Shown piece after piece: positions 8,394 through 63,923 of a stretch of DNA of 64,000 nt (the stretch's first letter is position 1; the number at the start of each line of letters is the position of its first letter). Both the position numbers and the translations under genes were made by a program. This stretch comes from a virus. The notes under the pieces were generated by a model. The model had not been told where the DNA came from. It saw nothing but the letters and a program-made list of their open reading frames with translations, and did no database searches. The stretch spans positions 96,001 to 160,000 of the IMG/VR virus record IMGVR_UViG_3300009408_000001; one strand, written 5' to 3'.

Positions 8394-8561
8394 CCGTGTG
8401 TTACCCACTCGGGTGGCCACCTTTGCCGGAATAACGGCACCATTTCGCCACATGACTCGACGCTAACTACTGGGTGGATGAAGAGGGCGAAGTACAATGT
8501 GACGCAGGTGAAGGTCCCTTCAGCCCGGGGATTCTAAACCTGTAGTAAGTAACATAAGCTG

Positions 8562-8673
8562 GAGGCCCTTCACGGGGCCTCTTTCTTTTTGCCGTTTCAG
8601 TCATTATTAAGAACCACATTACCTTACTGATAACACGTCCGTGTTATTTAATCCATTTGGAGATTTAAAGATG
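8562..8673 (+). repeat. Terminator-promoter-palindrome-RBS module, copy A
   Basis: GAGGCCCTTCACGGGGCCTC + T tract, CATTATTAAGAACCACATTACC, ATAACAC-GTCC-GTGTTAT, TTTGGAGA RBS; near-identical to 28490-28601. Confidence 0.9.
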
Positions 8674-10281
8674 TCTATTGTAAAAAATGTACCTGCATGC
8701 CCGTATTCCCTACATATCGAAAGAACCGTTAGCAACGGTATTAAATGTGTACGGGTCATTCGCCGTGGAGAGGAGGATAGTGCTGACCTCCTGTACACTT
8801 TACACTCAACGCGTCGCGTTCCGCTGATTGATGATTCGCACCCAGAGTTAACCATTGCTATATTAGGGAATTCGATGTATGTGCTCGGGAAGACCTCTGG
8901 GGTGGTGACCAAAACAACCATTCCAGAAGGATACGTTGCAGCACAACAAACGACCGTGACTGGGTGGATTCCTGAACACATACACGGGCTATCAAACAAA
9001 TTCGCGTTCAAGTTAGAAGGAGGGCAGCGCGTGGTACGCACCATGGAGGCCTGTTTCCCAGGTACAGGTGTTAAGGAAGGGGAGTCAATTCTTGCTCCCT
9101 TCGAGGAGAGACCGGCCGTTCTTCCGACTCCTGACATAGGTCAAGTACGCCGAGTACCGGACGTTGCAGGTAACGTGCTGAAACTCAAAGACTGTGGAGA
9201 CACGGTGGGTGTTCCGTGTCAGGTAGGTGCCCATGACATGCCGACCCTAGTGGGTCGTTATCGTATACTTGAAGACGGTACCCCTGCTCTGATCAACATT
9301 GACGATGTACACCTCATCGGAAAAGAGATCCAGATTCGAAGCATTACGAAGTGTCGTTCTCCAAACCCAATGAACAGCTGTAAAGTGTGCAGTGGAAACC
9401 CACTACTAGTGGTACACACCATGGAGGCCTGTTTCCAAGGTACAGGTGTTAAGGAAGGGGAGTCAATTCTTGCTCCCTTCGAGGAGAGAGCGGCCATTAT
9501 TCCAACCCCTGATATAGAAAAAGTACGCCGTGTAGTGGATGAACAAAAGGGGTGCGTAGGGCGACGTACCCAGGCTGAAGAGGATAATCCGACCATTGAT
9601 TCTATAATCAACGCCGCGAGAGCTCGAGTCGCCGCTGGTGCCAAAAACCAACCACTGGAGAATAAAATGATTACACCCGATTACACAAATGAGGATGGCA
9701 AAGGCTGGACATTCATTCTAGATGGGGATGAACTCTATGTATCCCATGGGGATGACTTCAATCCCAGTGATACTGCTAGCTGTTACATGGTACAGCGGCT
9801 CACTAGTGTACATGCTAGTCCCAATTACCCGGGTGGTAACCGTTGCCAGTTAGGTAGGCACACGGTGTTCGTCAGCACCGAAGGTACACTCCGTCACATT
9901 GATGCAGAGACCGGGGTAGTATCCACTACCCTCTTACCCGGGATCTGTCTGGAAGACCTAGAACAAGAAAGAATTGAACTCCAACTCTCTCTGCCAGAAG
10001 GTGGCACACACCTAGTACCGGACGTTACCGATATCGTTCTGGGACTTATTGAATGTGGAGATACCCTAGGTGTCATCTGTATGAATTGCATACGCTTCAA
10101 CGAGGCCGTCGTATCATTCAGTTCAATCCGTCAGGGTAGTGCTGTCACATATGTGGAAACACACCCCGTGGATGAACAGTGCGAAAACCTCGGGGTTACT
10201 GTTACTTGTACGGATGGGAATCACATGACGTTCATGGTAGGGACCCATGCACATACCCTGCCACTGCATGATCTCAGTTAA
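8671..10281 (+). CDS. Mosaic accessory protein containing a captured RNAP beta' Zn-binding module
   Basis: Start at ATG 8671 after GGAGA (track GTG 8641 lies inside the palindrome); 9181-9390 matches 55022-55231; internal RBS+ATG at 9667. Confidence 0.85.
   Translation: MSIVKNVPACPYSLHIERTVSNGIKCVRVIRRGEEDSADLLYTLHSTRRVPLIDDSHPELTIAILGNSMYVLGKTSGVVTKTTIPEGYVAAQQTTVTGWIPEHIHGLSNKFAFKLEGGQRVVRTMEACFPGTGVKEGESILAPFEERPAVLPTPDIGQVRRVPDVAGNVLKLKDCGDTVGVPCQVGAHDMPTLVGRYRILEDGTPALINIDDVHLIGKEIQIRSITKCRSPNPMNSCKVCSGNPLLVVHTMEACFQGTGVKEGESILAPFEERAAIIPTPDIEKVRRVVDEQKGCVGRRTQAEEDNPTIDSIINAARARVAAGAKNQPLENKMITPDYTNEDGKGWTFILDGDELYVSHGDDFNPSDTASCYMVQRLTSVHASPNYPGGNRCQLGRHTVFVSTEGTLRHIDAETGVVSTTLLPGICLEDLEQERIELQLSLPEGGTHLVPDVTDIVLGLIECGDTLGVICMNCIRFNEAVVSFSSIRQGSAVTYVETHPVDEQCENLGVTVTCTDGNHMTFMVGTHAHTLPLHDLS
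9031..9534 (+). repeat. 126-bp in-frame direct repeat (9031-9156 and 9409-9534)
   Basis: 114/126 nt identical by manual alignment, with a 52-bp exact core. Confidence 0.95.
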
Positions 10282-10295
10282 CCAAAATAAGGCAT

Positions 10296-10329
10296 AAAAG
10301 AAAGGGCCAAACGGCCCTTTCTTTTTTTT
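10296..10329. terminator. Bidirectional terminator between convergent genes
   Basis: AAAAGAAAGGGCC-AAAC-GGCCCTTTCTTTT. Confidence 0.85.
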
Positions 10330-13531: not shown

Positions 13532-14473
13532 ATGAACGCATACGACACATTACCTGGTGAACCCTATACCGATGAAATCAAAGAGATCAAGGAAGTCATT
13601 GAAACCCAGGTTGCAATGGGTTCGGAAGGAAGATACCGTGAAACTACCGGCGGGTTGAACTACGCTGAAGTGGACAATGAAAAACTAGGTGGTTGGGTAC
13701 ACCCCTTTACCATGGGGGACAAGGTATACGGTGACCCTCGTCCATTCTTAAACTCTCGAGGCGGGGTTCGTTTAAGTACAGACCACGCCTTCTTAACTGT
13801 ACGGATGGCCATGGAACAAGAATGGTCACAGTCTGCTTCTACCTTTGAATCATTTATCACACCCTGTGCTGCGGTGTTCGGACAGTGGGTATCTGGCTCT
13901 GTCTTACAACGGTATGGCCTTACCGCTATTGACGAGGTCACTGTAAAGGTGTTGGCAAGTACATGGTACATTGCAGTTATCCTGGCGGGCATTGAAGTAC
14001 AGAACACTGAAGACAGGTTGAAAAATGACTTGGGTAACTACATCAGTGTGGATGATCTCATTACAATGTCACTTCGTTCACTTGGTTCGCGTGGCGTTGG
14101 AATCCCAGCAGAGTTTACAAATGAGTTACTAGAGAGTAACGACGGTATATTCTGCAAGGCCCTCGTTACGGGATTTCCCAGTATGCAACTCTTGACGGAT
14201 GCCATTACTGACTCTATCTCTACTAAACTGGGTGAGTTTAGTCCACTGGCACTTCGAAGAATTATGGCAGGTGGCAGCTGGTTGGGGTACATGGCGGATA
14301 CTTTCTCGTTGGTGGCAATGGAATACCCACCGATGTTGGTATCTATGTTGTACTTCATTGAGAAGAACCCCAGTTTCCGAAACAAGACCCGCATCGGTCG
14401 GTCCTCTAACATTGTAGGACGCAAGGGTGGTGTGGAAGCATTAGCTAAATCCGTTGGTAGAATCCTCCCATGA
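13532..14473 (+). CDS. Virion structural protein (phiKZ gp28-like)
   Basis: GGAGA RBS before ATG 13532; divergent from sheath, as in the phiKZ gp25-30 block. Confidence 0.65.
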   Translation: MNAYDTLPGEPYTDEIKEIKEVIETQVAMGSEGRYRETTGGLNYAEVDNEKLGGWVHPFTMGDKVYGDPRPFLNSRGGVRLSTDHAFLTVRMAMEQEWSQSASTFESFITPCAAVFGQWVSGSVLQRYGLTAIDEVTVKVLASTWYIAVILAGIEVQNTEDRLKNDLGNYISVDDLITMSLRSLGSRGVGIPAEFTNELLESNDGIFCKALVTGFPSMQLLTDAITDSISTKLGEFSPLALRRIMAGGSWLGYMADTFSLVAMEYPPMLVSMLYFIEKNPSFRNKTRIGRSSNIVGRKGGVEALAKSVGRILP

Positions 14474-16980
14474 TAGACTTACCCAGTTTAATTTATGACA
14501 CAGCTAAGTCGGAGCTGTGGACTAACCCACATAACGACCGACAACTAACCTACAAGCCAACCAGACTCTGTACGATACATGGGTCGGTTGGTTCTGTAAC
14601 CACTCACATGGCAACCCAACGACTTCCAGATGTAACCACCCGTTGGGTGTTATATGACTTTGGTAACCTGCCACTGGAAGGAACAGGAATACAGAGCCTT
14701 AATACCACGTGGTCTACTGGTGAATCAATAATGGTAGACAACGCCATGTTACTCAGTGTGTACTGCAATGGGGTTACGTTTGCGCCTGGTCAGTACCAGA
14801 TGCGACGTACCAGCAGAAAACACGTGTTACTGGCACTGGAGGCCGTACCCAACAGTAGCGCACTGTCGACTCTGGAACCGTTGTTCTTCCGAACGTATTC
14901 CAACGTATGGCACTCTACCTCGGCTAACCCGTATCCTGTACCCGTGTTACCCAGAAGTGTAACCTGCATGGCACCAGCAGATACGACTACGGTTTTATTA
15001 CACCAGGATGAACCGGTGGTGGGTAACCGCATGTTGTTCCACAATGGATATTACGTTTCTGATATTACCAGTAACGACATATCGAACGGGGATACCGTGT
15101 ACCAACTGGATGACTTACCGGGTAACGGATACGTCGACATTCCGGTGAATGACCTGAGTCATTATGTTTCGGACAACGATCGACGTGGCAAGTATGTCGT
15201 GATGCACCCTACCAATGGCACACCCCTGGCAATGGAACCAATGGATGAACTGGAGTTATTCGTTTGTTGTACCACGAAAAGTATAAATGGTGAGAGAGAC
15301 GTTGTTAAAGGTGTCTACTTCGGGAGAACTAAAGTAGGTGACATGCGTATGTTAACCCACCGAGATTACTCCATCGATGTTAGAAAAGTAACAGGATTAA
15401 CAGTGTCCCACCGCACTATCTTTGGAAACCGGGATGTTTTCTTTCGGGTATTTACTCGCAAACACGAAAACGGTAACCTGACAATTCTAGATGGGTCTTA
15501 CCTACTCGACCTCTTTAGACTAGAGGACAAAGATCGGGTTCGGATGATGACTGGAACCGGTGGGTTTAAAGGGTGGAGATGTACTGAACTGGAAAAGGCC
15601 AACTCCATACTGTGGCAGAGTCACGCATGGTGGGAATTAACCCAACCAGATAGTTTGAAGAATACTCTGGCATTGCCAGCGGTAGCCGAGCTTGTAGCTA
15701 CGGGTACCGTGAACGGTAACACACATACCCTTCCCTTCTCCATGCGACTTGGTGGTAAAGCAATTGGTTATGACGTAAACGGTGTTCTCATATCCATAGA
15801 AACCATTCCCGTTGATTCGGATGGTACTGTGATGGCGCTTCCAGTGGGAGTGGTCAATGTGGAGTACATCCCTGGAGAATTCATCACCGATGGTAGGATG
15901 ATTGATGAGCCCATGTACGGTGGTGAGAAAGCCAACTGGTTTAATGAGGTGTACTACTACAATGAAACGGAAGGGGGACAATGGCTACAGGGTCTAATAG
16001 ATAGGGACTACCACATTGATGCTGGTACCGGTGAGGTGTTGTGGGATGAGAGGCTTGCAACCGCAGGGTGGACAAGGCGCACGTGTAAGTACAGTTCTCA
16101 TCGTCGCATACGCACTGCTCCAAACACACTACATTACAAGTACTCCATGTGGGAAACCAACGAACCCGTCATTGCGGTAGGATTGTTTAAGACCGAGGTC
16201 TACATCAATGGCCACCAGCTAGTGGAAGGGATTGAATACACTGTAATTGGGCATTCTTTCCGGGTGAACAGTGCAGAGTACTACAATGGAGACGATCCTG
16301 AAGTTGTCATTGATGTATTCCATTATGGGGTAAGTGACCGTGGGGAAGAGAGAAAGATATCTGGGTTCATCCAACATCGGAAGGCGGTACCCATTACTGG
16401 GGAAGGACTGTTCATTAAAGGACGGAACCGGGTTTGCTTTAACTCTGGTTGTCTGGTAAGTGCGGATAAACTTGGCATACTCGAATCTCCAGGAACGGAG
16501 ACAGACCCAGCATACAGAGAAGGCTCATTGTGGGCAGCGGAAACAAGACCTATGTTACACAGTCGTTGGGGATTGCGTGCGTTTGGGGAGGAAGACGGGT
16601 ACTCTGAAATAATCAGTCGATCTGTGTTCAGACATATTCCAAAGCCGGATTTATCTGGACTGCTTACCATTCCCAAGCAACACCTCTTGTTCTCTCCGTT
16701 CATCAAGCGGGTAGTATGGTTGCTTATAAATAAGACACTGGATGTTTCCGTATTGGGAACCAGTCGATCATCAGTACAGTCCGCAATGGTACCCTATCTA
16801 GACCTACTAGCAGAAGACCCTACCTCACGATTAAGTTCGGATGGTCAACTTGGGATATCCCCCCTGCCGGAGTCTACCGTAACAACCATCTCAGGCAGTG
16901 AGATGGCCTTTCTTAGAGAAGTCGTTGCACTGTACTACAACGGTAACGTAACATTAAACCTCCACCTTCGGGTGGTGTAA
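14470..16980 (+). CDS. Virion structural protein (phiKZ gp27-like)
   Basis: 836 aa; synteny. Confidence 0.65.
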   Translation: MIDLPSLIYDTAKSELWTNPHNDRQLTYKPTRLCTIHGSVGSVTTHMATQRLPDVTTRWVLYDFGNLPLEGTGIQSLNTTWSTGESIMVDNAMLLSVYCNGVTFAPGQYQMRRTSRKHVLLALEAVPNSSALSTLEPLFFRTYSNVWHSTSANPYPVPVLPRSVTCMAPADTTTVLLHQDEPVVGNRMLFHNGYYVSDITSNDISNGDTVYQLDDLPGNGYVDIPVNDLSHYVSDNDRRGKYVVMHPTNGTPLAMEPMDELELFVCCTTKSINGERDVVKGVYFGRTKVGDMRMLTHRDYSIDVRKVTGLTVSHRTIFGNRDVFFRVFTRKHENGNLTILDGSYLLDLFRLEDKDRVRMMTGTGGFKGWRCTELEKANSILWQSHAWWELTQPDSLKNTLALPAVAELVATGTVNGNTHTLPFSMRLGGKAIGYDVNGVLISIETIPVDSDGTVMALPVGVVNVEYIPGEFITDGRMIDEPMYGGEKANWFNEVYYYNETEGGQWLQGLIDRDYHIDAGTGEVLWDERLATAGWTRRTCKYSSHRRIRTAPNTLHYKYSMWETNEPVIAVGLFKTEVYINGHQLVEGIEYTVIGHSFRVNSAEYYNGDDPEVVIDVFHYGVSDRGEERKISGFIQHRKAVPITGEGLFIKGRNRVCFNSGCLVSADKLGILESPGTETDPAYREGSLWAAETRPMLHSRWGLRAFGEEDGYSEIISRSVFRHIPKPDLSGLLTIPKQHLLFSPFIKRVVWLLINKTLDVSVLGTSRSSVQSAMVPYLDLLAEDPTSRLSSDGQLGISPLPESTVTTISGSEMAFLREVVALYYNGNVTLNLHLRVV

Positions 16981-22142: not shown

Positions 22143-22170
22143 GAGGCCCTTAACGGGGCCTCTTCTTTTT
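22143..22170. terminator. Bidirectional terminator of the repeated GAGGCCC family
   Basis: GAGGCCCTTAACGGGGCCTC flanked by A-rich and T-rich runs. Confidence 0.85.
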
Positions 22171-23853: not shown

Positions 23854-23923
23854 TATTTCAAAACAATATTACCTTACTGATAACACGTCCGTGTTATTTA
23901 TTCTAATTGGAGCTTTACTTATG
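23854..23923 (+). promoter_or_regulatory. Promoter-palindrome-RBS module
   Basis: TATTTCAAAACAATATTACCTTACTG, ATAACAC-GTCC-GTGTTAT (23880-23897), TTGGAG. Confidence 0.85.
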
Positions 23924-26154: not shown

Positions 26155-26348
26155 ATGCTGAAGGGGTACACATGTACCCCCTTGTGGGAGAACGCAGCTG
26201 TGAGGGCATTCTAGAGGGTACAGTACGTATAGAAAGGGACCTGCCACAGTACAACCAATACGATTTACTGGATAATGGTTCGAACGTAGGTGTCAACGTA
26301 TCCCGATATACGAACCAAAGTCAGTTACATATCCCAGTAACAGCATAA
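26151..26348 (+). CDS. Small hypothetical protein
   Basis: ATGA overlap; followed by a terminator. Confidence 0.6.
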   Translation: MNAEGVHMYPLVGERSCEGILEGTVRIERDLPQYNQYDLLDNGSNVGVNVSRYTNQSQLHIPVTA

Positions 26349-26352
26349 GCAG

Positions 26353-26454
26353 GAGGCCCCGTTAAGGGCCTTTTCTTTTTTCTTTGCCCTCACGCATATT
26401 TCAAAACCATATTACCTTACTGATAACACATCCGTGTTATTGATTCTAATTGGA
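26353..26454 (+). repeat. Terminator-promoter-palindrome module with inverted terminator and degenerate RBS
   Basis: GAGGCCCCGTTAAGGGCCTT, CATATTACCTTACTG, ATAACAC-ATCC-GTGTTAT (26423-26440), TTGGAT in place of TTGGAG. Confidence 0.85.
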
Positions 26455-26549
26455 TATCGAACACGTGTTCGATGATAGAGTGCACGGACTACTGAAGGAA
26501 GACCAGTCCATGGTATCTATTTACATCCAAGCCACCTGAGGATAAGTAA

Positions 26550-26726
26550 TTGTTCCTGTACATCCCTAAAAAGAAACCAGTTCCTAAACGTGGAGATATC
26601 ATCTCCACCCGGGGTAATGTAACCTACGTTCGTTTTAAGGTAGAACCCCGCCGGTTCATTAAGGGGTCTAGTGAAAAATGCGTCAGGGTTAACCCTGACA
26701 AGGACGATACCGATAAACCAACATAA
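26550..26726 (+). CDS. Small basic hypothetical protein (58 aa, TTG start)
   Basis: GAGGA 7 nt upstream of TTG; stop just before the terminator. Confidence 0.4.
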   Translation: MFLYIPKKKPVPKRGDIISTRGNVTYVRFKVEPRRFIKGSSEKCVRVNPDKDDTDKPT

Positions 26727-26730
26727 ATAG

Positions 26731-26820
26731 GAGGCCCTTCACGGGGCCTCTTTTTTATTTGCGTTCCAGCCATTATTAAGAACCACATTGTTATTTAATT
26801 CATTTGGAGATTTAAAGATG
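26731..26820 (+). repeat. Terminator-promoter-RBS module with a 22-bp internal deletion
   Basis: Same terminator 20-mer, CATTATTAAGAACCACATT joined directly to GTTATTTAATTCATTTGGAGATTTAAAGATG. Confidence 0.9.
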
Positions 26821-28489: not shown

Positions 28490-28601
28490 GAGGCCCTTAA
28501 CGGGGCCTCTTTCTTTTTTACCGTTTCAGACATTATTAAGAACCACATTACCTTACTGATAACACCTCCGTGTTATTTAATCCATTAGGAGATTTACCAT
28601 G
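28490..28601 (+). repeat. Terminator-promoter-palindrome-RBS module, copy B
   Basis: Near-identical to 8562-8673; palindrome ATAACAC-CTCC-GTGTTAT at 28559-28576. Confidence 0.9.
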
Positions 28602-29951: not shown

Positions 29952-29982
29952 GAGGCCCTTCACGGGGCCTCTTTCTTTTTTT
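29952..29982. terminator. Terminator of the repeated GAGGCCC family
   Basis: GAGGCCCTTCACGGGGCCTC + T tract between convergent genes. Confidence 0.85.
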
Positions 29983-29986
29983 GCCG

Positions 29987-30715
29987 TTAACGCGGTACAA
30001 ACATACCGGTGTACGTCTGGGCTTGTTTCTTATCTGCAAACACGTTTATTTTTTTCCATCGTTTCATCTCCGTCTCTTCGTACAGTTCAAATGAGTCAGC
30101 GTACTCGTCTACAATACTTCGTATGTGTTCACTCATGTTACCGTGGCTGAAGGCACTGAACCCGGTTGACAACGATAACTCCTTATGAACATAACCCTTC
30201 GCTGCCAACACACACAGTTTACCAAACTGCATCTGACTGGATACTGGTAGGTTGTGTAAGTTGGCATCGTGTGATAAGATGTAGCGTAATGCCACATGGG
30301 GGGATAACATTGTTTGAGGGGTAGCAATGGTGTTCGGCCCTACCAGGTAAACCTTTTCCGTACCCGGATGATTTGCATTCCCCATGGTACCTTCTGGGTG
30401 GATCGGTCCACGGTTAATAATAGCCAGTGGCTGTAAGATACTCCTCCCGTTTAACAGATCACTGGGTATAACCCACTGTGTCCCAGTTGGGTAGGTCTGG
30501 CGCGGGATGTTGGTTAAGTCCATTACCAATCGTTCACCAGTTACCATGAGTACATCTTTGAGTACAATGCCTCGTATGATCTCACTTACGATGCGGTCAT
30601 CGAGAGAGGCGATTTCGTATTGTCCTACGTTACGCCCGAATAAAGTCCGTTGAAGGATCTCTGTGTTTATCTCCCGGTAGATCCGGTCCAGACCATACTG
30701 AATGTGCGCCGACAT
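29987..30715 (-). CDS. Conserved hypothetical protein, possibly virion structural
   Basis: AAGGAGA RBS; 242 aa; lies near phuZ as in related phages. Confidence 0.65.
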   Translation of the reverse strand: MSAHIQYGLDRIYREINTEILQRTLFGRNVGQYEIASLDDRIVSEIIRGIVLKDVLMVTGERLVMDLTNIPRQTYPTGTQWVIPSDLLNGRSILQPLAIINRGPIHPEGTMGNANHPGTEKVYLVGPNTIATPQTMLSPHVALRYILSHDANLHNLPVSSQMQFGKLCVLAAKGYVHKELSLSTGFSAFSHGNMSEHIRSIVDEYADSFELYEETEMKRWKKINVFADKKQAQTYTGMFVPR

Positions 30716-30816: not shown

Positions 30817-31434
30817 ATGTCTAACCAAACAATGCCGATCACGTATGTAGAAACATACGTACCCACCATAGGGTGGAAACAACTGGAACATTCGCTTAAT
30901 CTGGAACAAACCAGAAGCCTTTCATATTGGCTAACGGGTTATGGTAAGTGTAGCTACATGTACGGTGACCCAGACGGTAACGATCTAGTTGCATTACAGT
31001 TAGATAGGGGGCTCCCTTCTGGAAACCCATATTCGATAGACAGGTATGGTGTCTGTGTATTATCGCCTCCTGCCGGAAAGGAACACCTGGGTGACTATGG
31101 GTTCGGTTGGTTAACCTCAACGGAAGTAATCGAAGCACATGTTACACTACCCATGTATACTGGGAGAGGCATTATTTCCATAGCGGACTACAACGACATG
31201 CAAGAAGGAGACGCGCCCCCAGGCATCCCCGATATTTACCTAGCCGGGGACATGGTCGTGGTGTCTACCCCGGGTACAATAACCGAGTTAACGACGCACG
31301 TTAACGTCGAATGGAAAATCGACGTAAGTGCAGAGTTCAAACCCTTCGTAGACAGCCTAAAGAAACTGCATTACGAGGTGGGAGAAGTCCGACTTATCTT
31401 CGGATACGTGAAAACCAGGTCCAACCATTATTAA
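30817..31434 (+). CDS. Hypothetical protein
   Basis: 205 aa; CACATTACC motif at 30754-30762 upstream. Confidence 0.7.
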   Translation: MSNQTMPITYVETYVPTIGWKQLEHSLNLEQTRSLSYWLTGYGKCSYMYGDPDGNDLVALQLDRGLPSGNPYSIDRYGVCVLSPPAGKEHLGDYGFGWLTSTEVIEAHVTLPMYTGRGIISIADYNDMQEGDAPPGIPDIYLAGDMVVVSTPGTITELTTHVNVEWKIDVSAEFKPFVDSLKKLHYEVGEVRLIFGYVKTRSNHY

Positions 31435-31500
31435 GAACTACATTACCAACATGATAACACGTCCGTGTTATTCTTTCCATTTGGAGCTACATCTAACATG
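31426..31500 (+). promoter_or_regulatory. Promoter-palindrome-RBS module upstream of phuZ
   Basis: CATTATTAAGAACTACATTACC, ATAACAC-GTCC-GTGTTAT (31454-31471), CCATTTGGAG. Confidence 0.85.
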
Positions 31501-48735: not shown

Positions 48736-50240
48736 TGCAAAACGAACATAACTCATATAACCTAGTTAGTGAGACCCCCTCTGTAACACTGGTGTCCGCT
48801 GTGTTCAGTGAGGTACCATTAGAAGCACAGTCGCATTATCGACCCTTTACGGTCCGGACTGACCATACCACCGCCACTAGGTTGGATGAGATTACACAAG
48901 GTGGTCGCCTCACGGATGCCCTTAACTTAACCAGCATTGCAGGTAGCATTGTAGCACCCGCAACACAGTCACAGGGAAAGATCGTTATTCCAAACGGGTG
49001 GGATACCCGAAGAATGTCCGTTACGCTGACCTTTAACGTGTCCACGGGGTTTGGAGTTACCTTAGAAACCGTGAACGGGTACAGTTCCCACACGGGACTA
49101 TCCCGAGATGGACAGAACCTTGACCCCCAGATGGAAATTTTCCTAACCGGACATGAAACAGCTGTGCAAAAGAGAGCAATGGGTTCCGCCCCTTCCGCAG
49201 TCTCATACGGTAAGTGTTCTTCTAGTCAGTTGCTGGGTAACACACAACATGTGGGAATAGATGGCATCATCAGCGCAACAACCAGGATGGCAAGACCAAC
49301 TGACCTCCTGTCTCACCAGGATAACGTGGTTAATAACTACGACCTTCCCAGCATTATTGACCAGCGTGGTGTAGTAGGTGGGGGGTATAGTTCATCCAGT
49401 ACGGACAACGTCACGCCTTCCGTGTACCTGTCAAAGGTAATGGGTGCGTATAAGGAAGCATCTGCTACTGTAGGTAACCACCGTTCGTCCGGGCATGGTA
49501 TTATGGCCGCTGCCGCAGTATCGGATTCTGCTACGGAGACAGAGAAATCGGAGTCTATCCTCTTTAGAACAATTGGAGATTACTCGCAACTGACCACTAC
49601 TGGCCGGGTTACGGTAACCGAGTTGGCCAGGATGTTCCCTAACTTTGACCATGTTACGCACGTTAGCCTTATTCCCAGGACAGGTATGACTGACCTGACT
49701 GGACATGTAAACCACTGGGGAGGGTCTAATCTGGAAACGAACATCGCTCTCATGTTGACTCAGTCCATCCCATCGTTCATGGCAACGTACATGATCGGCA
49801 CGTACGGATTTGCAATGGATAATCATGTTACTAACTTTGGCCAGGTTGGCCAGGTTGGAAATAACCATGTGAACTTCATTGAAACAGGGTGGCAGGGTAA
49901 GTTGGAACTTCCTGACAACCCCATCCGAGCGGACTATGTTAAACAGTCCATCACTGGGATCCTTGTGCCTCAGATCCTAGCAGCCGGTGTAGGGGACTTC
50001 ATCATTTCCTGTACTGTAAACAGCCTAGGGAGTTGTTCAGTATCACTGAGCATCAACGGAGGGCACACAATGGAGTTCTCCAATGGGGTATACTCCAATG
50101 CCCTCTCTACACCGATTGGGGTCCATGGGATGGACCAGGTGCGTGAAATCTCAGACGGTATCGTTGGGGCTACACAGGGAGCTATAAAAGACTCCCACCT
50201 GACCGCAGGTGGGTACGACGACATTTACCAAGGGTATTAA
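48735..50240 (+). CDS. picA: Nuclear import factor PicA/Imp1 (phiKZ gp69-like)
   Basis: 501 aa; gene immediately after gp68-like. Confidence 0.7.
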
Positions 50241-50241
50241 G

Positions 50242-51627
50242 ATGAAGAAGTTAGAAAAGCATTACCGATCAGTGTTATCGGATTGTGGCAACTTGGTTGA
50301 GGACAACGGTACTGTCTTAACCATGCTGGAAAATGTGAACACTGGTAAGTTGAAGCCCCGTAAAGTACGGGTGGCCAGAAGCACAGACCAAGGGGAGAAG
50401 GGGTGGAGATCTCTTCCACTGGTTATTCCAACGAGTGGCCTGTTGGCAGAGGAAGATCAGTCTAAGATGGTGTTCTTCCATCCTGCGTGCGAAGAACTCT
50501 TACGTGGGCAGTCTGAAGTACTTAACGCGATGGTTAAGATGGTATCCGAACGACTGTTCCTGTCGTCTACTTCGCTGATCGCTGCGATCATTTCGAATGC
50601 AAATGAAACCGACCTACCACAGTCTGCGGCAGAGGTGATTGCACAGGTCCCTATCGTGTCAGATAAGACAGTGTCGGACCACGCCAAGTTCATGTCTGGG
50701 ATCACCGGGTTTGCTTCTCCTCGTCCAGCAGTACGGATTAAGTTCAAACGGAATGGGAACGACGACGGTAAAACGTACACTCACAAATGTACGATTGACT
50801 TCCCACCCATGCTTAATGACTTCTATGGCAGAAAGTTGACGAAAGCAGCTAAGGCGGCTATCTTGAAAGCGTACGAACTCGTTTGTGGCACAGGCGAGTA
50901 CACTGCTTATTCAGAAGGCGGACAGGCACCGTATTATCGGACTCTACTAACCGCATACCACGAAGCCATGACTCGGATCAACACTGTTTCCAAGGCACTC
51001 AAGCACATTGGTCATCCAGTGTTGTGTGAGTTTAATGGTAAGTGGTTAAAGGAATTGGCCAAATTAGGAACGTGGTATAAGTCTGAGTTGTTCATTCAGC
51101 TAGAAGGAAACCGTGGACTAGGTGGCAGTCAAACAGAAGAAACCGCTTCTGTAGCACAACCCATTAAAACTGTAGCACCACAACGCAATGTTCCTGTAGC
51201 TCCAACACCAGTACCGCAGGCACCACCTGCTCCTGCTCCAGCCGCAAGTGCAGGTTCATGGTACCCACCTGTACAAACCCAGCAACAGCAACAGCCACAA
51301 CAAGTGTACCCACCACAAGGCAGTTATCCACAAACCCAGCCACAACAAGGATACCCACCACAAGGCAGTTATCCACAACCCCAGTATCCGCAACAAGGAT
51401 ACAGCCAACCCCCACCACAACAATCACAGTATCCGCAACAAGGATACAACCAATCTCCACCACAACAACCCCAGTACCCGCAACAAGGATACAGCCAACC
51501 CCCACCACAACAATCACAGGGTGTTCCAATGAAGTCATACCGGGATGATCGAACGGGTCAGATCATGCAAGCCCCAATGACTCCTGATGAAATCAACACC
51601 GCGAGAGCTCGAGGACAGCTCGTTTAA
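50242..51627 (+). CDS. Conserved protein (phiKZ gp70-like) with Q/P/Y-rich C-terminal repeats
   Basis: Synteny; YPQQGY-type repeats at about 51290-51520. Confidence 0.7.
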
Positions 51628-52037: not shown

Positions 52038-52061
52038 ATTGTGGAACAACAGGAGAATACA

Positions 52062-54191
52062 ATGATAACAGAAGAAATACGCAACCTAAACTACGATGAT
52101 CTTTTGGCTGCCTTGCCACGGGCAATGTCATTAGAACACATGGGGATGGATGCAGCTAAACAGTCCTTTGGGATAAATAACAGTGGGAGCAGGAAACAGA
52201 TGGCTACTGCAATGACAGCACAAGCCGTGTTGCCAAAGGTACCAACTGTAGCACGCTGTCTACATGGACTGGAATCCCAGTTGGCAGAATACACTGTACG
52301 CATACAGGCACCGTGTGACCTGATTGTTAAGAAAGTGATCTCCAAGTACCCAAGGGGAATAGGAGATGGGTCCTTTGCAGAGAACCCATTAATCACGGTC
52401 ATCTTCCAGCATGCAGAGACAGGCCAATATGGTAGTTTCCATATACAATCCTACCACAACCAAGAGGACCGTTACCATGAAGTGTTTGGCTTTAAATACA
52501 AGTTGACACTGCTCGGTAAGCAGTTACACCCTGGTATGAGAATTGCGGAAGGTGCAGTACTGGCAAAGGGACCCAGTGTTACCGAGGACGGTACTTACAT
52601 GTCCGGGTTGGGTGCGAACCTAGCCTACATGGAATTACCACATGGGATTGAAGATGGGTTCCGGGTCTCTAGGGAATGGGTTGAGCGAGCCAGCCCTATT
52701 GGAACCATGATGTACACCTGCTCGTCTGGTAACAAGTGGTTCCTCTTAAACATGTATGGGGATAAGGATAACTTCATTCCGTTTCCTGCCATAGGACAAG
52801 GTATTCGAGCGGATGGTATCCTGTATGCAATGCGGGTGTTTGACCCGGTGTTCAACGGGATTGACATGACTGCCGAGGCACTGATGGTCGTGGATAGGGT
52901 ACACGATAACGTGTGTTACGTTGACCCTAAGCTCATGTCCAAGGGGGCTAACGCATCTGTTATTGACATTACCGTGTTGACCACCACCACCGAAGGGAAT
53001 AAGAAACGGTCTACTCCAGTGGGAATGGAGCTAGCTATGAATAAGTACGTGACGGCTACTAGTACTTATTGGAAAGAGATCGCAGACTTTTACTTTGAAG
53101 TAACCCGTGGACAATCTGACAAAGGCAGTATGTTACAACCGGAGTTCCAGACATTGGTGACTCGTGCGTTTGGGGATGTTCCTTCTACAACCGCAAAACG
53201 TACAGCATGTGGAGCAAAGCACGTACATAAGTCATATCGGGATACTCCAATTGACGAGTTCACTGTAGAGATTAGATTGCAGTACACTCACGTACTTGAC
53301 CTGGGAGGTAAGACAACCAACCTACATGGTCATAAGGGGGTGTTCTGTCTCATAACCCCACGCAGTGAAATGCCACGGGACGAGTTCGGTAACATAGCGG
53401 ACATCGTTTACTACACCAAGGGAGTTATTGGTAGACTCAATCCGGGACAACTGTACGAACACTTCCTAAATGCCACAGCACGTGATGTCAGTAAGGATAT
53501 ACGGAAAATGGTAGACGCGGGCAAATGGGATGATGCATGGAACCACTATGTCGGTTACATTGAAGCGTCAAACCCGGCTTACCTGAGTGTTGTGAAGTCG
53601 GCTAGTCCGGATGAGATACAGGAAGTCGTAGAAGGAATCTACGCCGATGGCATTTACAACTTTGTTCCAGCAAACTCCGGTGACATTGGCATAGAGGTCC
53701 GAGATCGGATTAACGCATTCCGTCCTCCAGATAAGAGTCCCGTCACTTATGTGGATACTAACGGCAATACGGTTACAACGTTGGTACCTGTGTTGATTGG
53801 AGAAGTGCAACAACTTATCCTGGAGAAGATTCTACATAAACCGGCGGCGGTGGCAGGGGCACCGCGTGGAACATACGGTTTGATCATACCACCTTCTAAG
53901 TCAACGAAGTATAACACCCCAGGTAACCAAACCGCTCCACGGGGAATTGGGGAGTCTGAAAGTCGGAATGCCGCATCGGTCTTACCCAAAGGCGAGATCA
54001 ATGAGGTACTTCAGATGAGTACGGATCCAAAGGCACATGCCTCTTCCGTTAGAAAGATCTACACTGGGCCAAACCCGTGTCAGGTACCGGATTCCCTAGA
54101 TCGAGATGGGGAACCCAGTATTGGGCGAGCAGCAGCATACGTAAGACACATCCTGAGGTGTTACGGCATCGACATAGTGAACGAGGCATAG
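52062..54191 (+). CDS. Non-virion RNA polymerase beta C-terminal subunit (phiKZ gp71/73-like)
   Basis: SGSRKQM..., EDGF, GGKTTNLHGHKG (GDK...HG.KG), GRLNPGQ, GESE motifs; AGGAGA RBS before ATG 52062. Confidence 0.92.
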   Translation: MITEEIRNLNYDDLLAALPRAMSLEHMGMDAAKQSFGINNSGSRKQMATAMTAQAVLPKVPTVARCLHGLESQLAEYTVRIQAPCDLIVKKVISKYPRGIGDGSFAENPLITVIFQHAETGQYGSFHIQSYHNQEDRYHEVFGFKYKLTLLGKQLHPGMRIAEGAVLAKGPSVTEDGTYMSGLGANLAYMELPHGIEDGFRVSREWVERASPIGTMMYTCSSGNKWFLLNMYGDKDNFIPFPAIGQGIRADGILYAMRVFDPVFNGIDMTAEALMVVDRVHDNVCYVDPKLMSKGANASVIDITVLTTTTEGNKKRSTPVGMELAMNKYVTATSTYWKEIADFYFEVTRGQSDKGSMLQPEFQTLVTRAFGDVPSTTAKRTACGAKHVHKSYRDTPIDEFTVEIRLQYTHVLDLGGKTTNLHGHKGVFCLITPRSEMPRDEFGNIADIVYYTKGVIGRLNPGQLYEHFLNATARDVSKDIRKMVDAGKWDDAWNHYVGYIEASNPAYLSVVKSASPDEIQEVVEGIYADGIYNFVPANSGDIGIEVRDRINAFRPPDKSPVTYVDTNGNTVTTLVPVLIGEVQQLILEKILHKPAAVAGAPRGTYGLIIPPSKSTKYNTPGNQTAPRGIGESESRNAASVLPKGEINEVLQMSTDPKAHASSVRKIYTGPNPCQVPDSLDRDGEPSIGRAAAYVRHILRCYGIDIVNEA

Positions 54192-54193
54192 AC

Positions 54194-56158
54194 ATGGGTA
54201 GCGCAATTCAGTTAAAAGAGTACACCGTAGCCGATTTACTGGCTATCTCTCCAAGTGAGATTGAAGGGAAACTGCCACCGGTTCATATTGTTCGGTTTCC
54301 AGATAACACCCTCCTGTTATCTAGTCCACCTAGGACTAGAGTATCCAGGACATACTGGGAGTTATTCTGCCTATATCCCGGTGCGGTAATCGGCAGGGAG
54401 CATATGCTACCCGCTACGGTTTTTAAGAAGTCCAGTGATGTGGACCTGTTGCAGACTTTGTTCTGGGATGTCCGTGCGGGACACATGGCACTCCATCCAG
54501 ATGCAGAAGATCCTGTTTGGAGAATGGCAAAATCCGCATATGAGATCCAGAACACGATGTACAACATGTACGTCAGTGACCTGGGGAAGTATGGTTCATC
54601 CGTAGACTTGGATGCCCTTTCCGAGATCATGACACACCCACAGGTGGTTTCGGCACTCAAGGCAAATGATGACGGGGATATCGACCTTGACGAAACATAC
54701 CGTCGGATCATCTCGTTCATGCAATCTCCACTACCGGAGTTAAGAGACAACGGGATTGCTAGGTTATCTCGGTGTAACCTTTTGTCACTGGCACAGACGG
54801 TACAGATGGTAGGGCGTCGAGGTCAAGTATCTGCGGCAGATGGGAGAATCTATAAGTACCCTCTGAAGGGTAGTTTTGGAAATGGCCTAGGTGACCTGTA
54901 CTCTTACGCTACAGAATCCCGTTCTGCGTCGTTGTCACTGTACATGACCGATGGGCCACTCAAGGATACGGAGTACTTCAATAGACGCATGCAACTCGTG
55001 TGTGCTATTATACAGGGGATCAAACTCAAAGACTGTGGAGATACAAAGGGCATTCGGTATCAGGTAGGTGACTATGACATACCGACCCTGGAGGGACGTT
55101 ATCGTATCCTTGAAGACGGTACACATACTCGGATCAACATTGACGATGTACACCTCATCGGAAAAGAGATCCAGGTTCGAAGCATTACGACGTGTCGTTC
55201 TCCAGACCCAACACACAGCTGTAAAGTGTGCATGGGAGATATACATGTCACGATGCCTCCTCACACGAACTACGGTCACTTCCTGACGGTCTATGTGCTT
55301 TCTAAGTTATCCCAGCTTATTCTAAGTACGAAGCATGTTGTGACCAGTGCAGAGGCACTTACGTTAGTCCTTAGTAAGGACCTTCAAACGTGGTTCCGAC
55401 TGGACAAGTTGAACAAGTCACAGGTTCGGCTACAACGGGGGGTAGGGAACGTTATGATCCGCGTTCCAGCGGAAGGGGTATTCGGGAGAAACATTGTACT
55501 GCATCATAAAGGAGATGTCGGTACTTTATCTCCACCCCGGATAAGTTGTATCCCTTCTCTTAAGATCGCACAGATGGGACCATCGGGTACACGTACAGGA
55601 AACTGGATTGACGTGGATGTTTCAGTAGGCGGCATTGGCAGTGCCTTATCAACAGATGTACTGCGAGAGATGCACCTGAGTGGTTGGGAGAACGAAGATG
55701 GGGAACTGTTAATCCGGTTGCCTAACTTCGGCGGTAATTCCGTATTCATTACGCCTCGTCGGAATGACTCCATGATGGATTACGTGAAACGGTTCATGTA
55801 CTTCATCTTTGCTGGAGATCCTCGTGCCGGTAAGGGAGATAGTATCGCTAACTACGATACTCCAGATGCGGCAATCGCTGCTTTGCGTACCATCGTAGAT
55901 GAGCGTGTTCCAGAAGCATCCTTTGGTAACATAGAGGTGTTCATTCGTGCAGTAATGACGGTTGCAGGAAGACGTAACCTGAACTTACCCGTTGGAGGAG
56001 AGCCCTTCAAGTTCGTATCAGCACTGCATGTTCTATCAGGTAGGTCAACAAGTGCGGTTCTGGTTTACCAAGGACAACGCAAGGTACTAACCACACCGGG
56101 TTCACTCTTAAGGAAAGTGACTCAGGATCATCCGATCGACTGTATGTTCGGAGAATAG
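54194..56158 (+). CDS. Non-virion RNA polymerase beta' C-terminal subunit (phiKZ gp74-like)
   Basis: QMVGRRG, LKDTEYFNRRMQ (bridge-helix-like), Zn site DCG...CRSP...CKVC, SQLILSTKH (trigger-loop-like). Confidence 0.9.
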   Translation: MGSAIQLKEYTVADLLAISPSEIEGKLPPVHIVRFPDNTLLLSSPPRTRVSRTYWELFCLYPGAVIGREHMLPATVFKKSSDVDLLQTLFWDVRAGHMALHPDAEDPVWRMAKSAYEIQNTMYNMYVSDLGKYGSSVDLDALSEIMTHPQVVSALKANDDGDIDLDETYRRIISFMQSPLPELRDNGIARLSRCNLLSLAQTVQMVGRRGQVSAADGRIYKYPLKGSFGNGLGDLYSYATESRSASLSLYMTDGPLKDTEYFNRRMQLVCAIIQGIKLKDCGDTKGIRYQVGDYDIPTLEGRYRILEDGTHTRINIDDVHLIGKEIQVRSITTCRSPDPTHSCKVCMGDIHVTMPPHTNYGHFLTVYVLSKLSQLILSTKHVVTSAEALTLVLSKDLQTWFRLDKLNKSQVRLQRGVGNVMIRVPAEGVFGRNIVLHHKGDVGTLSPPRISCIPSLKIAQMGPSGTRTGNWIDVDVSVGGIGSALSTDVLREMHLSGWENEDGELLIRLPNFGGNSVFITPRRNDSMMDYVKRFMYFIFAGDPRAGKGDSIANYDTPDAAIAALRTIVDERVPEASFGNIEVFIRAVMTVAGRRNLNLPVGGEPFKFVSALHVLSGRSTSAVLVYQGQRKVLTTPGSLLRKVTQDHPIDCMFGE

Positions 56159-62553: not shown

Positions 62554-63923
62554 ACAAGTACGAGGTATTTAAACTGGCGCACAAGAACCGACTTACCTAT
62601 ACCAGACGGTGGATGATGCGCACCTATTCGGTCCCACTCGTAACTGAGAATAAGGCATTGGACTATTTCATCTCTCTGAAAATAGGGGAACGGGAGACCG
62701 CCACCAAGTCCGTGTTTGATGAGGGAGATATGGCGTTTATGATGTCCCCTCGAGGACAGGGTCCAAACGTGGAAGACTTTAGACCCGGGTACGTATACTA
62801 CTCCAGTGATAAGAAAGTCATGGTACTGAATGAAGGACTGGAGTTTGAAGAGATCACCGGGACTAACTTTACCGAACCACTGTACGGGATTTTGGAACAA
62901 ACGACCGTGGCTAAAGATGATTTCCTCATGGTAAAGGAGACGACAAAGACAAATTACAGTACCCTCCTCCATAACCTGGTCATCTACGAATATGCATTTG
63001 GGGATGCCCTTCCCTTTGTAAATGCGAAGATGTCGCCTAAAGGGAACGATGCTGCTGTAGCCAAGGCGTGGGCAGAGAAGAAGATCGATACTGCGATGTA
63101 CCGTAACCACACAAAGGGACTTGGTCTAATGGAGTGCATGTCCATTGTATCTGTTCCCTCTGCCACCCCTAAGGCAGCACTGACACACCCTGGTGTTGGG
63201 GCCCTTAAGAAGAAACTGCTTGAGAAACACAAAGATGAACTTGGTGACCCAGTAACCGTAGCGCACATTGAAGCAGAGTTGGTTAAGTTAGATGGGGAAC
63301 ACTTGAAGGGCGACCCCAGTGACAGGTTCTTCAATGGTAAGGCCCGGGCGGTTAGCCGAAAGAGAATGCTTCTTATCTTCGGTGGAGAACCCACCCTAGA
63401 GGATGCCACTGTAATTAAGTTGTCAAATGCTTCCCTTACAGAAGGAATCAACATTGACGATTTGCCAATGATGGTTAACTCGCTAAGGATGGGTTCATTC
63501 TACCGTGGAGCAGAAACCGCAAATGGTGGTGAGGCAGCTAAGTTCGCAGGGCGGATTTACCAGAATACCCGTTTAGCAGATAAGGACTGTGGTACGAAAG
63601 TGGGTAACCTGACTGGGATTACCTCTAAAAACTATTCGATGTTCGTGGGAAGACACACAGTCGGGGGTAAACAACCCCACACGCTGTCCAGTGCAAAGGC
63701 ACTTGTTGGCAAGGGGTTTTACCTACGGACTCCCCAGGCGTGTGCCACTGTCAATGGCAACTACTGCGAGGTATGCATGGGGGATGATGTAACGAACTCA
63801 GGAGTGGGACTGGCTCCCCAGGCATCAGCAGTAGGAAATTCTTTCATGATTATCTCCCTGTCACAGTTCCATGGGCGTAAGTTGGAAACTGCATTCTGGA
63901 ACTACGCGGAGTCAATCCGATGA
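62550..63923 (+). CDS. Virion RNA polymerase beta' subunit (phiKZ gp80-like)
   Basis: SFYRGAETANGGEAAK (bridge-helix-like), DCGT...CATVNGNYCEVC Zn site, SLSQFH. Confidence 0.85.
   Translation: MNKYEVFKLAHKNRLTYTRRWMMRTYSVPLVTENKALDYFISLKIGERETATKSVFDEGDMAFMMSPRGQGPNVEDFRPGYVYYSSDKKVMVLNEGLEFEEITGTNFTEPLYGILEQTTVAKDDFLMVKETTKTNYSTLLHNLVIYEYAFGDALPFVNAKMSPKGNDAAVAKAWAEKKIDTAMYRNHTKGLGLMECMSIVSVPSATPKAALTHPGVGALKKKLLEKHKDELGDPVTVAHIEAELVKLDGEHLKGDPSDRFFNGKARAVSRKRMLLIFGGEPTLEDATVIKLSNASLTEGINIDDLPMMVNSLRMGSFYRGAETANGGEAAKFAGRIYQNTRLADKDCGTKVGNLTGITSKNYSMFVGRHTVGGKQPHTLSSAKALVGKGFYLRTPQACATVNGNYCEVCMGDDVTNSGVGLAPQASAVGNSFMIISLSQFHGRKLETAFWNYAESIR

Follow-up and report, generated by a model that had tools for sequence, protein, structure and literature searches.

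Introduction

In the beta' subunit of Escherichia coli RNA polymerase (RNAP), four cysteines (C814, C888, C895 and C898) hold one zinc ion at the second zinc site of bacterial beta'. The subunit of phage PhiKZ that carries the corresponding site is gp74, the C-terminal part of beta' in the non-virion RNAP (nvRNAP). Here, a stretch of 64,000 nucleotides (the window, bases 96001-160000 of the 197,530-bp IMG/VR virus contig IMGVR_UViG_3300009408_000001) was analyzed, in which a 70-residue piece of the phage's own gp74-like subunit is repeated inside an accessory gene. By homology, the repeated piece (copy A) corresponds to the second zinc site of gp74 and of bacterial beta', with which it shares the four cysteines and the conserved core; unlike gp74, the open reading frame (ORF) that carries it is not a polymerase subunit. 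The features on which the comparison rests are the following.

8671-10281, + strand: recipient ORF, 536 aa, lineage-specific accessory gene (ATG at 8671; the ORF listing extends to a GTG at 8641)
9181-9390, + strand: copy A, the captured module of 70 aa (KLKDCGD...SCKVC), Zn-clasped domain of nvRNAP beta', by sequence match
54194-56158, + strand: donor gene, nvRNAP beta' C-terminal subunit, PhiKZ gp74-like, 654 aa (phrog_3015, E = 6e-118)
55022-55231, + strand: copy B, the donor segment, residues 277-346 of the subunit, lying between bridge-helix region and trigger loop

Three further systems are close enough to be compared. Poxvirus K3L imitates the S1 domain of eIF2alpha, and is a viral pseudo-substrate or decoy captured from the protein that it imitates. 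The present locus is similar in that an accessory viral gene holds a stand-alone copy of one autonomous domain from an essential protein; it differs in that the imitated protein is the virus's own, in the lack of conservation across viruses, and in the divergence of the surface residues. Replication template switching of the microhomology-mediated, break-induced type gives templated insertions with flanking duplication. Here, too, a distant stretch of the same genome was copied and is bracketed by a duplication of recipient sequence of equal age, with perhaps a second snippet from the neighborhood of the donor; in contrast to that system, junction microhomology is not clear and the sequence after the first repeat copy departs from the simple model. 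In T4-type phages, PeSL promoter-terminator cassettes flank and shuffle orphan genes (PMC2839356, PMC4122927). The likeness in this contig is a unit of ~120 nt (terminator, promoter-like block and stem-loop) that stands in many copies before unrelated cargo genes, the recipient ORF among them. The differences are that the event took place within the cargo gene without use of the cassettes, that the phage group is another one, and that the promoter is predicted.

The zinc module and its donor

Copy A was aligned to copy B without gaps, with 185 of 210 nt and 54 of 70 aa identical, a longest exact run of 43 nt (9291-9333) and 23 changed codons, 7 synonymous and 16 non-synonymous. These figures had been given in the preliminary description of the locus and were all reproduced. 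When the recipient ORF was searched with BLASTN against the whole 197.5-kb contig, the donor was matched at E = 6e-73. Each copy lies in frame 0 of its own ORF, all four cysteines are present in copy A (DCGD...KCRSP...SCKVC), and outside a segment of 210-215 nt the identity falls immediately to background (4-12 of 30 nt at the same offset). Among 1.84e9 representative proteins, the nearest to copy A was the window's own gp74-like subunit (73-74% aa identity, 111 bits); the second-best match stood at 38% and 48 bits, and identity to any other protein was 42% or lower. Self-comparison of the contig gave the two copies as the sole instance of dispersed core-gene sequence copied within an accessory gene. 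The source of the segment is the Zn module of the phage's own nvRNAP beta', and the relation is a genuine partial gene duplication.

A family profile of the donor and 26 homologues matched PHIKZ074 (PDB 7OGP chain D) at E = 9e-198; directly before the donor, at 52041-54191, lies another nvRNAP subunit gene of the phage. The region of copy A itself matched phrog_3015 'RNA polymerase beta subunit' at E = 2.5e-11 (residues 181-253 of the gene-call protein) and PhiKZ gp74 residues 287-356 (PDB 7ogp_D) at E = 0.0015. Donor residues 277-346 lie C-terminal to the 'SRSA..KAL...EYFNRR' bridge-helix region and N-terminal to the 'NlGh....QsvLStKH' trigger-loop region. When the profile of the 27 gp74-type subunits was compared with PDB chains, 'ggDCGTt' was paired with 'EDDCGTHEG' of E. 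coli, and 'IklRSittC...gvCstCfG' with the region of its SC...CxxC motif. The cysteine columns, which are invariant across the 27 members, were aligned to C814, C888, C895 and C898, and the equivalence that had been proposed from the sequence at first reading was thereby confirmed.

Copy A starts 4 aa before the first cysteine and ends on the last. As judged from the alignments, the copied piece corresponds almost exactly to one structural unit, a beta-rich domain with one N-terminal and three C-terminal cysteines. Since a single zinc ion is held by cysteines from both ends, the two ends of the 70-aa piece would be brought together, so that the module could sit as a plug-in insertion in another protein.

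Two other sequences of this kind were seen. A third, distant Zn-module-like stretch at 63582-63785 (tblastn E = 0.012, 29.6% aa identity to copy A) probably belongs to a beta' paralogue, that in the second (virion) RNAP. P0017, a gp74-type RNAP subunit of 981 aa from another metagenome, is ~300 aa longer than its relatives; the extra part lies upstream of the zinc module, and may be an intein or another insert. Between this insert region and the recipient ORF there was only a 42-aa similarity, at chance level (E = 0.14).

The recipient gene

Outside residues 171-240, no homologue of the recipient protein was found: an exhaustive HMMER search of the 1.84e9 representatives returned only the protein itself and RNAP subunits, the latter via residues 157-270, and the flanks of the module had no Pfam, NCBIfam or PHROG match. 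With hhalign, the N-terminal 170 aa and the C-terminal 296 aa were compared with the 27-member RNAP family profile, and the probability was 0.1% or lower. On these HMMER and hhalign results, the earlier statement that the copy lies in frame inside an otherwise unrelated 536-aa ORF was upheld, and the alternative that the ORF is a degenerate polymerase paralogue was rejected. A large internal repeat between the N-terminal and C-terminal parts was likewise rejected (Smith-Waterman z = 0.35), as was an intein or homing-endonuclease remnant (no Hint, HNH, LAGLIDADG or GIY-YIG domain, and no Pfam match even at E = 10). Look-alikes of residues 297-536 in the ESM Atlas reached a top score of 0.76, below noise. 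Because the bridge helix, the trigger loop and the rest of beta' are absent from the ORF, an action in transcription like that of beta' is impossible.

The ORF stands between a regulatory cassette and a terminator.

8551-8670, + strand: regulatory cassette 5' of the recipient ORF (terminator hairpin, AT-rich promoter-like block, 5' hairpin, GGAG)
8551-8672, 22143-22170, 23862-23917, 26344-26457 and 26720-26820, + strand: cassette copies in the window (more lie outside it)
28490-28596, 29952-29988 and 31426-31486, + strand: further cassette copies in the window
10296-10325, + strand: hairpin terminator, strong (13-pair stem with A-run and T-run), separating the ORF stop from the convergent tail-tube gene, by terminator scan

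The cassette comprises a terminator hairpin (8561-8582) followed by a T-run, the conserved AT-rich block, a second, small hairpin (ATAACAC-N-GTGTTAT), and a ribosome-binding site, GGAG, at 8 nt from the ATG; its terminator sequence is GGAGGCCC...GGGGCCTC. Full or partial, the ~120-nt cassette has ~25 copies in the 197.5-kb contig, which are 74-94% identical and all lie on the + strand. The copies stand directly 5' of unrelated genes, and when 12 of them were aligned, the conserved blocks, the ribosome-binding site and the start codon lined up. At the other end, the reading frame is open for 296 codons past the insert, and beyond the terminator lie the convergent tail-tube and sheath genes. The place convergent on the tail-tube gene is a variable slot, and in Vibrio phage vB_pir03 it is occupied by unrelated hypothetical genes.

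From this arrangement of terminator/promoter-like cassette, ORF and terminator, we infer a monocistronic unit of the type that carries fast-evolving early accessory genes. Conserved AT-rich early promoter motifs have been described in jumbo phages (PMC7598289), and by analogy the cassette fits that description. Of the earlier claim that the ORF lies behind an early module, the repeated terminator/promoter-like cassette was borne out; the word 'early' is carried by the analogy.

Direct repeats around the module

Recipient sequence is itself duplicated on the two sides of copy A. The preliminary description had overlooked this duplication, a diverged copy of the 5' junction (see below) and the origin of the contig in metagenome assembly.

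9031-9161, + strand: D1a, upstream direct repeat of recipient sequence (VV[R/H]TMEACF.GTGVKEGESILAPFEER...), 131 nt at 89%, by repeat search
9409-9539, + strand: D1b, downstream direct repeat of recipient sequence, by repeat search and BLASTN

D1a and D1b bracket the module; BLASTN aligned 126 nt of them at 90.5% identity (E = 1e-44). Their starts are 378 nt (126 codons) apart, which is a multiple of three. No further copy of D1 was found elsewhere in the contig or in public proteins. By the Nei-Gojobori method, the D1a-D1b pair gave dS = 0.153, dN = 0.106 and omega = 0.69, and the pair of copies A and B gave dS = 0.175, dN = 0.117 and omega = 0.67. The near-equal dS of the two pairs suggests one event, in which the polymerase segment was copied and part of the recipient was re-copied, as template switching does. 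D1 was also considered as a diverged polymerase piece beyond the zinc site, and this was rejected, since the extended alignment to P0017 was unconvincing and had no profile support.

The age of D1 also bears on the source of the segment. The donor could have been the polymerase gene of a related phage in the same cell, in which case the 12% divergence would be older than the capture; the donor lineage cannot be polarized, and recombination between co-infecting chimalliviruses is known (PMC11620839). However, the D1 duplication is purely internal and has the same dS, and divergence between orthologues should be mostly synonymous, whereas 16 of the 23 changed codons here are non-synonymous. No such related phage was detected in any collection searched, and we regard a co-infecting donor as very improbable.

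A short match to a gene close to the donor was found downstream of D1b.

9606-9628, + strand: possible second templated snippet (INAARAR / INTARAR), identical at 22 of 23 positions, with the same reading frame, to 51591-51613, which is the 3' end of gene 50209-51627

The gene from which the snippet would come is a phrog_3520 member that lies just upstream of the RNAP genes. The match had E = 0.002 with BLASTN against the contig, which is marginal on its own, such short matches being common in control windows. For short snippets from elsewhere in the genome, the ORF was not enriched above control windows, which were themselves dominated by cassette fragments. Within the same gene, 51375-51519 holds 55-nt direct repeats (98% identity, 90-nt spacing) in a Gln/Pro-rich low-complexity tail.

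A diversity-generating retroelement was rejected as the source of the differences between the copies, as only about half of the 25 mismatches are at A in copy B (hand count) and about a quarter in copy A. Nor was a reverse transcriptase seen in the neighboring genes.

A second contig and the search for relatives

A second metagenome contig (JGI 3300023500 Ga0257021_1000002, 176,114 bp) was collinear with the window, and encoded an identical 536-aa protein and, with the spacing of 45,523 nt unchanged, an identical RNAP subunit. The two contigs differed by 5 single-nucleotide polymorphisms (SNPs) in 20 kb, none of them within the recipient gene. An assembly chimera or a repeat collapse is a natural concern where a metagenome contig holds two copies that share a 43-nt exact run, and the preliminary description had named it as a way in which the finding could fail. 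Against this, copy A carries substitutions of its own on both sides of the exact run and rejoins the same ORF in frame, a pattern that a join through a collapsed repeat would not give, and the D1 repeats are themselves diverged. A chimera was excluded by the identical structure of two contigs that differ in size and in SNPs, and we give this explanation practically no weight.

All 5 SNPs (T/C, C/T, A/C, C/T and A/G) fall in a 103-nt patch at 16551-16653, within gene 14470-16980 of the DUF7193 family; the patch looks like a local hypervariable or recombined tract.

The fusion is known from the two near-identical contigs only. Searches of 50,697 phage records (BLASTN and TBLASTN) returned RNAP genes only, via the module, and a word-based search of 5.8e9 proteins returned only the protein itself and RNAP subunits. 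No relative was found among viral contigs scanned with the ORF and the tail-tube protein. Metagenome contigs scanned for exact matches to the D1 core and to the 43-nt run gave none, and neither did an exact-pattern scan of viral contigs.

Substitutions in the copy

The changes in the copy had been described earlier as near neutral. This holds for their overall rate (omega = 0.67, p = 0.34) and not for their placement, which is not uniform: the changes avoid positions conserved in the family. A position was counted as conserved if at least half of the 26 orthologues share the donor residue. Conserved positions were changed at 1 of 25 (D to N), vs. 15 of 45 for the others (hypergeometric P = 0.004; permutation on mean conservation P = 0.0003). 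In a neutral simulation of this avoidance, P was 0.0016, 0.017 and 0.094 with 25, 18 and 12 substitutions, respectively, placed on copy A; the middle value is reasonable if the polymerase gene is the more constrained copy. The 26 orthologues were uninformative for the polarity of the 16 amino acid differences, all of which were at variable columns and split about evenly. Under neutral simulation, the retention of the four cysteines (P = 0.27-0.55) and the absence of stop codons (P = 0.46-0.68) were unremarkable. Charged residues number 22 in the donor segment and 17 in copy A, and the variable face of the module would now be more hydrophobic. The pattern of changes speaks, modestly, for a fold that was retained and a surface that is drifting or re-purposed, and stops short of proving function.

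This pattern can be read in two directions with respect to a polymerase-surface mimic, that is, a module that would act as a decoy, a competitor or a targeting tag by binding a partner of the nvRNAP beta' surface. Fold-defining positions were kept while surface positions diverged, the captured piece would be an autonomous domain, and the gene stands in a cassette type associated with early accessory genes. Selective nuclear import in PhiPA3 and PhiKZ and competition centered on RNAP genes have been documented (PMC11087766, PMC11620839). However, the surface positions, which a mimic would be expected to keep, are those that were changed, and the net effect is five charged residues fewer; the module is not conserved in other phages, and nucleus formation by this phage is presumed. 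Mimicry is unlikely in our estimate, and the decoy, polymerase-mimic and nuclear-import readings offered in the preliminary description are speculation. The candidate partners are a polymerase subunit or a factor in its assembly, the machinery by which nucleus-forming phages import proteins, the polymerase of a competitor phage, and a sensor of the host. If mimicry were true, the virus would have made a decoy or an address tag from a piece of its own transcription machinery, and the effect could be import into the phage nucleus by the route of the polymerase subunit, interference with polymerase assembly in a co-infecting competitor phage, or titration of a host factor that recognizes the polymerase.

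Proposed origin and its alternatives

To account for the copy with its source and boundaries, the flanking repeats of equal age and the orphan status of the gene, we propose that one template-switch event in replication or recombination, or an equivalent double illegitimate exchange, inserted 378 nt in frame. The insert would consist of 210-215 nt copied from a site at 45.8 kb distance, in the phage's own gene for the nvRNAP beta' C-terminal subunit, and of 126-131 nt of the recipient, re-copied. Since the event (dS ~0.15-0.18), fold-defining positions would have been kept, and variable, presumably surface, positions would have been free to change, with loss of charge. As the most likely reading, and with moderate confidence, the module is taken to be a tolerated, still foldable zinc domain in an orphan protein, with no role in transcription. 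If the protein is expressed and the module has any function, that function would come from the display of a polymerase-like surface.

Domain shuffling and the duplication of parts of genes are familiar processes; what is unusual is a clean and dated case in a jumbo phage. Here the footprint of the event, a flanking duplication of equal age, is still readable for a domain of the essential polymerase that landed in frame in an orphan gene. The case shows a route by which orphan early genes gain ready-made folded domains. For nucleus-forming phages, the ORF with and without the module is a testable construct for polymerase-surface information in import, assembly and immune recognition. As a case from a single sampled lineage, the locus is for now an evolutionary curiosity and not a new system.

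Several results weigh against this proposal. The 19 nt after D1a differ from the sequence after D1b, contrary to a simple two-switch model. The omega of the module is indistinguishable from 1. The avoidance of the core loses significance when half the changes are placed on the polymerase gene (P = 0.09), and the outgroups, at 23-37% identity, are too distant for changes to be assigned to lineages. The gene has no relatives and shows no polymorphism between the two contigs. A single-sequence AlphaFold2 model of the whole ORF was uninformative (mean pLDDT 34.8). Finally, the 5' junction of the module has a diverged copy near the C-terminus of the ORF.

9147-9212, + strand: D2a, 5' junction, 34 nt of recipient and the first 32 nt of the module (older paralogue at 10008-10073)
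10008-10073, + strand: D2b, diverged junction copy (VPDVTDIVLGLIECGDTLGVIC) near the ORF C-terminus (Smith-Waterman z = 4.0, 0 of 200 shuffles)

D2a and D2b share 74% of nt (E = 4e-5), with the peptides VPDVAGNVLKLKDCGDTVGVPC and VPDVTDIVLGLIECGDTLGVIC, and are more diverged than D1 (90%) or the module pair (88%). At 9206-9218, copy A shares its states with D2b and not with the donor. An older capture that was refreshed by gene conversion fits the divergence of D2b and these shared states better than one recent event does.

According to that alternative, the capture is old, the junction was duplicated within the ORF, and the 88% identity between copies A and B reflects later conversion tracts. 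D2b holds the recipient flank (27 of 34 nt to D2a) as well as the module part (20 of 32 nt to the donor, 22 of 32 to copy A), at a divergence greater than that of the copy A/copy B pair. Copy A also shows a hint of mosaicism: it agrees with the donor at 9181-9192 and with D2b against the donor at 9206-9218, a window of 18 nt holds 8 mismatches (scan p = 0.017), and no synonymous change lies in the last 100 nt. The mosaic tests were nevertheless weak, and overall not significant (maximum chi-square p = 0.16; longest identical run p = 0.056; other scan windows 0.07-0.11). The C-terminal 74 aa after D2b have no similarity to the RNAP-family profile, and the equal age of the D1 duplication is left unexplained. 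An old capture kept similar by conversion is possible, and we hold it as a tentative alternative to the single recent event.

Another alternative is a neutral passenger, in which a dispensable or decaying orphan ORF received the insertion by accident, too recently for it to have been destroyed; the module would then neither fold usefully nor matter. Neither the omega of the module nor that of D1 (0.69) differs from 1, and cysteine retention and the absence of stops are what neutral simulation also gives. The gene occurs in one phage lineage only, and the ORF is a patchwork of repeats. A passenger of this kind does not explain that the changes spare conserved core positions or that the boundaries of the copy are those of a domain, and it sits poorly with a frame that stays open past the insert and with a complete cassette and terminator. 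We consider a neutral passenger a real possibility, short of probable.

The source phage

The contig is metagenome-assembled and linear, with a CheckV completeness of 71%, and the jumbo phage that it represents is known from metagenomes only. Judged by the gene content of the window (PhiKZ-type tail sheath and tail tube, an SbcC-like nuclease, and split multisubunit RNAP genes), the source virus is a PhiKZ-like jumbo phage. By the RNAP subunit, the nearest cultured phages were the Vibrio phages Yong and pir03, at ~30-33% aa identity. The best representative for the subunit among the 1.84e9 proteins was ~36-37% identical overall, and no relative closer than ~37% aa identity was found in any collection searched. 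Outside the window, at ~174266-178131 of the contig, there is a tandem duplication of ~2.2 kb (80-83% identity) with further repeats of 125-166 nt (87-94%), which looks like a paralogous gene array.

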